A stretch of DNA of 64,000 nucleotides. Origin: a virus. Of the stretch, positions 58,273 through 58,476 are shown piece by piece. The notes beneath the pieces were generated by a model that had not been told where the DNA came from, made no database searches, and worked only from the letters and a program-made list of their open reading frames with translations. The stretch is from positions 51,841 through 115,840 of IMG/VR virus record IMGVR_UViG_3300041809_000571; one strand, 5' to 3'. The translations under genes and the position numbers were made by a program. Within the stretch, counting starts at the first letter, position 1. Every line of letters starts with the position of its first letter.

Positions 58273-58476
58273 GCCCGTGTATGCGAACAGGCACAGCGGC
58301 GTCTAACGAAGGAGCGTCCCGGTAGGAGTGATTTGCGGAGGAACCGAAAAGGGCGGGATGCCCGGAAGCCGGGGACAATCCGGCTACCCTACGGGGTGTA
58401 GGGAATCACGTTATCGCCTATCGGAGCAACCCTCGCAAGGGGTTGTATGCGGGTTCGATTCCCGCCACGGGCACCA
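58273..58476 (+). tRNA. split tRNA-like gene: canonical 3' half (anticodon GCA / T-arm / CCA) with matching 5' acceptor strand ~130 nt upstream
   Basis: 3' half AACCC-TCGCAAG-GGGTT, GCGGG-TTCGATT-CCCGC, CACGGGC-A-CCA; only complement GCCCGTG-TA at 58273; intervening hairpin-rich sequence. Confidence 0.35.

Follow-up and report, generated by a model that had tools for sequence, protein, structure and literature searches.

Extra stable RNAs encoded in phage tRNA clusters, including RNAC and RNAD of phage T4, have been known for about 50 years. These two RNAs (species 1 and 2) come from the T4 tRNA cluster, and their roles are still unknown (PMC3014915; PMC9697503). Bacterial Y RNAs, such as YrlA and Yrn1 of D. 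radiodurans, are non-coding tRNA mimics with T and D arms and also occur in phages; the YrlA RNA of M. smegmatis is cleaved by RNase P and has CCA added, the distance of reported YrlA genes from Ro60 is at most 4 kb, and a motif close to the 5' end in these RNAs reads GNCGAAN0-1G (PMC4201824). The same authors warned that tandem tRNAs can score with the YrlA model (PMC4201824). In engineered tRNA scaffolds, a cargo replaces the anticodon arm, and the resulting RNAs are precisely processed, stable, and resistant to decay in E. coli (PMC3753655).

Here, we describe a 204-nt element at positions 58273-58476 (+) of a 64-kb window, the stretch of 64,000 nucleotides that we analyzed and to which all coordinates refer. 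The element lies inside a tRNA cluster of a huge phage from peat soil. The window is part of the metagenomic contig ena:ERZ27249816:k141_1180871 (364,142 bp), which looks like a huge phage, with genes mostly on one strand and a GC content of ~0.54. We consider it probable, at roughly 70%, that the element is a non-decoding tRNA mimic: a predicted stable RNA of ~204 nt, derived from a class II leucine-type tRNA, which has a conserved fold and uses the tRNA frame as a chassis. A small hairpin and a 106-nt domain of three hairpins occupy the place of the anticodon arm, and the fold has been kept by compensatory evolution across five variants. None of the Rfam families matches the element; it is a new RNA family of a general kind, tRNA-derived stable RNAs and tRNA mimics, that is already known.

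The window contains phage genes for ThyX, an SNF2 helicase, and homing endonucleases, along with rIIB-type relatives. It also encodes a full tRNA-repair set (PNKP, a T4-type Rnl1, a Thg1-like enzyme, and RlaP) and an MVP-like gene. ARAGORN found 37 tRNA genes in the window, arranged in two arrays, all on the plus strand and nearly all with an encoded CCA. The element belongs to the second array, where it lies 5 nt 3' of the third tRNA-Met (which ends at 58267); tRNA-Pro(GGG) starts at 58676, 199 nt beyond the element, and an HNH gene is located 2.2 kb downstream. Inside the array, no promoter or terminator signal stood above background. There are also tRNA-fragment-like repeats (GGGTGTAGC and GCACAGCGGC), and the array is a patchwork in which modules have been gained and lost between relatives. 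A search of the window for a close tRNA paralogue of the element returned none, with only a leucine-type resemblance. The parts of the element are listed in Table 1. Its single-sequence fold has an energy of -89.9 kcal/mol (z -2.7) and agrees with the alignment folds in the order of the parts.

Table 1. Parts of the 204-nt element and their coordinates in the window
Feature	Position	Strand	Remarks
5' acceptor strand GCCCGUG	58273-58279	+	Element positions 1-7; pairs with 58466-58472 (7 bp)
U8 A9 and tRNA-Leu-type D arm	58280-58298	+	From the ARAGORN -i drawing and comparison with the phage class II tRNAs
D stem UGC/GCG, 3 bp, with 11-nt loop GAACAGGCACA	58282-58298	+	Follows the 5' acceptor strand
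Small hairpin, 4-5 bp stem, conserved AACGA in the loop	58299-58318	+	Element positions 27-46
Inserted 106-nt domain	58319-58424	+	Between the small hairpin and the variable arm
Closing stem of the 106-nt domain, 8 bp, CCGGUAGG/CCUAUCGG	58319-58326 / 58417-58424	+	
Three hairpins of the 106-nt domain	58351-58363, 58367-58385, 58387-58403	+	Two inner helices lead to their junction
Long variable-arm hairpin, 8 bp, invariant CGCAA loop	58426-58446	+	Separated from the 106-nt domain by one A
T arm GCGGG-UUCGAUU-CCCGC	58449-58465	+	Canonical
3' acceptor strand CACGGGC, A73, encoded CCA	58466-58472, 58473, 58474-58476	+	Perfect complement to the 5' strand

The original prediction had read this locus as a split or intron-containing tRNA-Cys with a canonical 3' half. 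Part of that reading stands: the CACGGGC-A-CCA end follows the T arm, the only complement is the GCCCGTG that is followed by TA, and the locus has a genuine but non-canonical tRNA frame, with acceptor, D, variable, and T arms and an A73-CCA end. No ordinary tRNA is called here; the element is missing from the ARAGORN default list, and the Rfam tRNA model (RF00005) gave no match over 58273-58476 even at E-values up to 10 (criterion, at least 29 bits). The cysteine identity does not hold. What had been taken for an anticodon arm, with a TCGCAAG loop and GCA as its Cys anticodon, forms a hairpin of 8 bp around a CGCAA loop. Its place, 2 nt ahead of the T arm, is where class II tRNAs have their variable arm. 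The would-be U33 is a C, and the discriminator is A73, whereas tRNA-Cys has U73. The D arm that had been reported as missing follows the distant 5' acceptor strand, and the gap from that strand to 58427 is ~147 nt rather than the 130 nt given before.

The frame is that of a class II tRNA-Leu: a 7-bp acceptor stem with G1-C72, A73, A14, A15-U48, G18G19, a D arm whose 3-bp stem carries a large loop of 11 nt, a long variable arm, and a T arm of canonical form. U8, A14, A15, G18, G19, and A21 are all at canonical positions. RNAalifold drew a hairpin pairing positions 10-12 with 19-21 instead of the canonical D stem (10-12/24-26), and this region is invariant, so the alignment does not discriminate between the two; we preferred the canonical D arm because it places U8, A14, G18, G19, and A21 at their standard positions. 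All six tRNA-Leu genes of the phage share A14, A15/U48, A73, and G1-C72 with the element, and their D loops (e.g. GAACUGGUAGA) resemble its own. In all seven sequences the variable hairpin is followed by N-U48, which in the element reads A and U48 before the T stem. The tRNA-Tyr gene and two of the three called tRNA-Ser genes of the phage have G15/C48, and none of the three tRNA-Ser genes has A73. The variable-arm loop can alternatively be read as a GCAA tetraloop with a bulged pyrimidine. The element differs from tRNA-Leu in having neither a 5-bp/7-nt anticodon arm nor a leucine anticodon in context, in carrying 126 nt of extra structure, and in the length of its variable arm, which exceeds that of the phage tRNA-Leu genes.

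The closest natural counterparts of the element are T4 RNAC and RNAD, and Y RNAs and tmRNA also come near it. Like T4 RNAC and RNAD, the element is a structured non-tRNA RNA gene on the tRNA strand of a phage tRNA cluster, a likeness of category and not of homology. The T4 rnaC fold contains a canonical T arm (CCGGG-UUCGAAU-CCCGG) closely preceded by a hairpin, as well as a long hairpin and a terminal stem. Unlike the element, with its complete class II frame and three-hairpin domain, the annotated and folded rnaC sequence is 139 nt long and has a short terminal stem, no Leu-type D arm, and no CCA end. A covariance model of the element family (R1) scored 14.4 bits on T4 rnaC, which indicates no sequence homology. 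The tRNA scaffold chimeras of Ponchon and Dardel match the element in keeping the acceptor, T, and D arms and in replacing the anticodon stem-loop. The scaffolds are artificial, whereas the element is natural, conserved, and equipped with an extra hairpin and a long variable arm, and its invariant D-arm region suggests more than a passive chassis.

Relatives of the element were found by following its neighbors. Reached via the HNH gene, which has many homologues on long contigs, the 219-kb contig L065 (HNH 88% identical) carries a full-length copy in the same place (nhmmer E 6e-45). A 19-mer that is invariant between the window and L065 copies identified 11 more copies in JGI peat metagenomes. 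The family comprises 13 copies on related huge-phage contigs from peat metagenomes, with five distinct full-length variants that are 85-97% identical; three of these five are mutually 94-97% identical, so the alignment samples few independent substitution events. On the JGI contigs, the element sits between the last tRNA-Met and tRNA-Trp, and the array order differs from that of the window, which implies that the unit was kept through array rearrangement. In both array orders, it is on the tRNA strand and after the last tRNA-Met. Between variants with unlike flanks, similarity starts at G1 and stops at CCA, and position -1 is occupied by U in the copies of the window, L065, and L080. The R1 model scored the 13 copies at 190-257 bits. 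Its next-best matches were ordinary tRNAs, at no more than 29 bits, which aligned with it end to end with the middle deleted and thus confirmed the tRNA frame. Among the tRNAs of phage T4, tRNA-Leu matched R1 best (28.7 bits, with the others at or below 20.7).

Its distribution is that of an accessory element limited to a sub-clade. It was absent from the related phages L005, L008, L066-69, L072, L073, and L086-L101, all but the first two of which had been reached via the HNH gene, and the R1 search found no member in L005, L008, L066, L069, L072, or L073, nor in 14 loci of two further HNH lineages. L005 and L008, reached via a neighboring 226-aa protein, are syntenic yet lack the element; in L008, only 57 nt lie between the last tRNA-Met-type gene and tRNA-Pro(GGG). 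Its absence from most of the related phages examined implies that the element is dispensable and that its role may be narrow. Searches of INPHARED phages gave generic tRNA similarity only and nothing close. In IMG/VR, neither a 32-mer spanning the loop and T arm nor the invariant D-arm 19-mer had a match. A degenerate pattern of CGCAAG followed by the T loop found 56 IMG/VR loci, none resembling the element; by eye, these looked like tRNA-Ala(CGC) genes, probable tmRNA-type 3' ends, and unrelated sequences. Protein anchors (a 234-aa neighbor and a radical SAM protein) found no relatives in IMG/VR. A search within ±10 kb for a co-occurring partner protein yielded nothing convincing, as the clusters were mostly spurious open reading frames over tRNA arrays.

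The five variants allowed us to ask how the fold has evolved. In a 62-pair structure, which was partly derived from the same five variants, 99.4% of cells held standard pairs, and 12 pairs had changed on both sides. None of 500 column shuffles matched the observed pairing, compensated-pair count, or covariation score, and when the 3' partners were slid by 1-3 columns as a control, pairing was 37-42% with 0-3 compensated pairs. One compensated pair is in the acceptor stem (G7-C194, which is A-U in L065), four are among the eight pairs of the domain closing stem, and three are in the variable arm; two of the three distal hairpins contain one (positions 79-91) and three (positions 95-113). The small hairpin was paired in 100% of cells, with one-sided compatible changes in three pairs. 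Stems contained 33 of the 42 variable columns, and 9 of the 81 unpaired columns varied. All five variants are identical at positions 8-30, which cover the D arm and hinge, in the junction strand UUGCGGAGGAACCGAAA, and in UACGGGGUGUAGGGAAUCACGUU; within the 204-nt RNA, the junction sequence reads GGAACCGAAA. Covariation cannot probe the pairing of the invariant parts, namely the D and T arms, the inner helices, and one of the hairpins. The acceptor, T arm, and CCA are intact in all variants. Substitutions distributed in this way characterize a functional structured RNA rather than a gene in decay. Given 13 copies and five variants with compensatory substitutions, and conservation that is bounded by G1 and CCA, a chance arrangement is excluded. 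The T arm shows a single change among the variants, U55 to C in the L082-type variant, which is a counterpoint to a tRNA mimic.

With respect to decoding, the element has a 7-bp acceptor, a UUCGAUU-type T loop, and a discriminator with CCA, as in a canonical tRNA. We searched the element and its variants for a 7-nt loop with U33 and found none; the only candidates were the CGCAA loop and the AACGA loops of the small hairpin, which are 6-8 nt long, have no U33, and differ in length among variants. In none of the variants is there an anticodon arm with 5 bp in the stem, 7 nt in the loop, U33, and a purine at position 37. A UAA/CAA "leucine anticodon" at positions 32-34 was also considered and rejected; its U/C pairs with G in the consensus, and it has neither U33 nor a purine at 37.

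Based on these features, we propose how the RNA might be made and used. The element would be co-transcribed with the surrounding tRNA array, as suggested by the absence of internal promoter or terminator signals that exceed background. RNase P would then be expected to free the 5' end at 58272/58273, because the stacked acceptor and T arm are its substrate, and tRNA 3'-end processing would trim the RNA to the encoded CCA. The core could adopt an L shape through the usual contacts between the D loop, with its G18G19, and the T loop. By analogy with engineered tRNA scaffolds, the frame may serve as a processing and nuclease-resistance chassis for the inserted domain, whose conserved loops and junction would carry the function. 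That function is a matter of speculation, and our preferred guess is a decoy, sponge, or scaffold or binding platform for a tRNA-recognizing protein. Defenses that target tRNA are widespread (PMC10264068; PMC13056530), and it is on this basis, together with the heavy investment of the phage in tRNA repair through PNKP, Rnl1, the Thg1-like enzyme, and RlaP, that such a role, played out in the contest of the phage with its host over tRNA, appears attractive.

The next most plausible explanation, although an improbable one, is that the element is a chargeable tRNA-Leu mimic. LeuRS would leucylate the CCA end, and the leucine would be used outside normal decoding, with the RNA acting as a non-ribosomal aminoacyl donor or a tmRNA-like device whose inserted domain gives specificity. 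The identity set of E. coli LeuRS consists of A73, A15-U48, the placement of G18G19, and the class II shape, and the enzyme does not read the anticodon. Leucine charging is conceivable from the sequence: the frame keeps the LeuRS features that are shared with the six tRNA-Leu genes of the phage, the CCA is encoded, and tRNA-Leu is the best T4 match to the family model. On the other side, no genes for an aminoacyl-transferase, an aminoacyl-tRNA synthetase, or an SmpB-like protein were found among the scanned open reading frames of the window, and the element offers neither a conserved reading frame nor a single-stranded stretch that could serve as messenger. Its AUG at 58358 does not occur in the other variants, and the C at position 55 of one variant also speaks against charging. 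We similarly doubt the stronger form of this proposal, in which the element, leucylated by LeuRS, would stand beside tmRNA as a second type of tRNA mimic that can be charged, with the three-hairpin domain directing a non-decoding use. If the RNA were charged, it might pass its aminoacyl group to a protein or to a target in the cell envelope, or it might sense or block a host defense directed at tRNA.

Some large phages encode tmRNA, which shares with the element a tRNA-like module of acceptor and T arm, the CCA, and the insertion of a large structured segment that separates the D region from the T arm. We rejected tmRNA as an identity for the element, which has C3-G70 instead of the G3-U70 alanine identity pair, no tag reading frame or pseudoknot series, and a true D stem as well as a variable arm. 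It was not called as a tmRNA by ARAGORN -m, and the Rfam tmRNA model aligned with the 17-nt T arm only, at 14.3 bits against a gathering score of 47.

Another reading, which we judge quite unlikely, is a Y RNA-like partner of Ro60/Rsr or some other RNA-repair platform that would tether a protein to substrates or nucleases. The RNA-repair genes and the MVP-like gene of the window fit such a role, and weak matches to the YrlA model adjoin the element (58468-58590, 28.6 bits) or lie further on (59517-59615, 41.9 bits). The model of the Deinococcus Y RNA scores 16 bits over the variable and T arms, and the hairpin loop AACGAAG, found in three variants, comes near GNCGAAN0-1G. However, this loop is without the first G of the motif, and in two variants it reads AACGAGAG. 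The YrlA model itself (RF02553, gathering score 69) has no match on the element, and all matches to YrlA and Y RNA models are far below their gathering scores. Topology also separates the two: YrlA has a permuted order of T arm, closed acceptor, and D arm, plus a Ro60-binding stem, whereas the element has the normal tRNA order, open acceptor stem ends, and CCA. A TROVE protein was not found among 50 open reading frames across the 64-kb window, most of them of at least 150 aa. The two YrlA-model matches are separate modules.

The intron-containing tRNA that had originally been suggested is, in our estimation, less probable again. In such a gene, unknown machinery would cut out the intron; an endonuclease might act first, and PNKP and Rnl1, healing and sealing enzymes that the phage encodes, after it. 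An intron-aware search with ARAGORN -i indeed returns a gene, but it calls tRNA-Arg(ACG) rather than tRNA-Cys, with a 112-nt intron at 37/38. The program treats the CGCAA hairpin as a long variable arm, an assignment that is sound; the anticodon arm that it draws is not. Changes at positions 152 and 155 are still compatible with the anticodon stem of this call, yet the spliced stem (27-31/152-156) is only 68% paired with zero compensation, G29.A154 is mismatched in all five variants and A31.G152 in three of them, and position 33 is A. The bases of this stem are used instead in covarying helices (C47-G152 to U-A and C155-G173 to U-A). Of the two splice junctions, the 5' one would fall in a hairpin loop and the 3' one within the covarying 8-bp stem that closes the domain; with the 3' junction inside a helix, a bulge-helix-bulge motif is absent. 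By inspection, pairing the bases that follow the D arm with those that precede the variable arm yields a 5-bp stem in no other register.

Nor do the known intron classes fit. Rfam families of group I introns and ribozymes gave no match at E-values up to 10, and the insert is 106-126 nt long against a group I criterion of roughly 200 nt or more; the smallest known tRNA group I introns are about twice its size. Among the relatives, no intron-less allele was found, and the window already has an ordinary tRNA-Arg(ACG) at 56710-56784 (ARAGORN default). We also deleted segments by brute force and rescored the products with relaxed ARAGORN settings; this approach was not discriminating, as the good acceptor and T arm led to ~90% of the deletions being "called". 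Splicing of the element is unlikely, and covariation argues against the bolder variant, in which the 106-112 nt domain would be a new, small, enzyme-dependent tRNA intron that is resealed by PNKP and Rnl1.

A decaying tRNA pseudogene or recombination relic without its own function is very improbable: the patchwork array with its gain and loss of modules, the tRNA-fragment-like repeats, and the many relatives without the element would suit such an origin, but the 12 compensatory pairs, the better conservation of loops and junctions than of stems, and the perfect acceptor, T arm, and CCA of all variants contradict it, and the att-like relic of a host tRNA that had been raised before is unsupported, since searches of 185,579 species-representative genomes with an internal 19-mer and a 3' 26-mer found no exact match and no host tRNA with a matching 3' end, and since structural constraint governs the evolution of the full unit.

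The reading as a non-decoding tRNA mimic has a practical consequence for annotation, as tRNA callers in intron mode mislabel the element as a tRNA-Arg with an intron. More broadly, several distinct conserved RNA modules, missed by tRNA finders and Rfam alike, lie in the gaps of huge-phage tRNA arrays. The element adds to the stable RNAs of phage tRNA clusters a clean, covariation-supported case from uncultivated huge phages, in which the anticodon arm of a leucine-tRNA chassis has been swapped for a conserved cargo. From this case, it appears that phages put the tRNA frame to use as a natural scaffold that provides processing and stability for RNA functions of other kinds. Were the RNA charged, or active against defenses that target tRNA, it would be a new player in the conflict between host and phage over tRNA.

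The array that houses the element, a 204-nt tRNA-Leu-like unit with an inserted domain, also carries modules that resemble rearranged tRNA parts (see the table). In the module abutting the element the tRNA-like parts are permuted: a hairpin resembling a T arm (GGGGGUGUCUAGUCCCCC) is followed by a closed acceptor hairpin (CUCGCC-GAUG-GGCGAG) and then by a D arm (UAGCUCAAUUAG..GAGC). This module is almost confined to this contig, and the bacterial Y RNA model YrlA matches it weakly (28.6 bits vs a gathering score of 69). The window's best match to this model, at 41.9 bits, also falls short of that score; here the T arm is followed by the closed acceptor CGCCCCG-CCAUG-CGGGGCG and a D arm, with UCUCC/GGAGA as the analogue of an anticodon stem. 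Using nhmmer, we found the surrounding region (59408-59739) kept in the related phage contigs L065, L008, L066-68 and L073. No gene for Ro60/TROVE, the partner protein of Y RNAs, was found among the ORFs scanned in the window.

Two further structured modules are shared with related arrays. The hairpin module of ~75 nt has a basal stem that covaries across contigs, changes location from array to array and has the 10-mer GCACAGCGGC in common with the D arm of the element. The module preceding tRNA-Trp, found in several related arrays, runs from a T-arm-like hairpin through a short hairpin and CGUAGCCUYRAUGGUAGC to a long hairpin.

Features in and around the tRNA arrays, with window coordinates unless a related phage contig (L number) is named
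Feature	Coordinates	Strand	Remarks
tRNA-Ser-like gene, class II	30402-30484		directly 3' of tRNA-Ser cluster
tRNA-like gene and CTA-anticodon tRNA	L005 13823-13891 and 15140-15215
Permuted tRNA-like module	58477-58584		immediately 3' of element
YrlA-like module	59517-59615		top YrlA-like match
Hairpin module, conserved	58585-58675; L069 8413-8497; L080 8290-8360
Structured module, conserved	59610-59739; L005 14095-14225; L080 8575-8708		directly 5' of tRNA-Trp
Major vault protein-domain ORF	30761-33202	-	813 aa; shoulder and repeat domains (E 1e-21)
ADP-ribosyltransferase-like ORF	34045-35016	+	weak match
GIY-YIG ORF	23454-24167	-	GIY-YIG domain
Candidate HNH-like ORF	56832-57240		reading of translation alone
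HNH ORF	60646-61200		Pfam HNH domains
tRNA-repair genes	8524-11302, 41430-42200, 49706-50644

One variant of the element (the L082, L079 and L083 copies) has the T loop UCCGAUU, in which U55 is replaced by C; to our knowledge, this position almost never changes in working tRNAs. The tRNA-Ser-like gene, called by neither ARAGORN nor Rfam, has a T arm (AGGGG-TTCGATT-CCTCC) and the 3' end TCCCTCC-G-CCA. In the tRNA-like gene of L005, CCAG-GAAA-CUGG replaces the anticodon loop and the acceptor stem is lengthened to ~11 bp; the CTA-anticodon tRNA of the same phage is a possible amber suppressor.

Three ORFs of homing-endonuclease type lie within or beside tRNA arrays, and the HNH ORF at 60646, whose synteny is kept across many related phages, was the anchor used to locate relatives. 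The major vault protein-domain ORF adjoins the first tRNA array, and the ADP-ribosyltransferase-like ORF follows ~0.8 kb past it; this pairing is reminiscent of vault components. The window also encodes a full tRNA-repair kit (PNKP, T4-type RNA ligase 1, a Thg1-like 3'-5' polymerase and an RlaP nucleotidyltransferase), which points to strong pressure from the host on the tRNAs.
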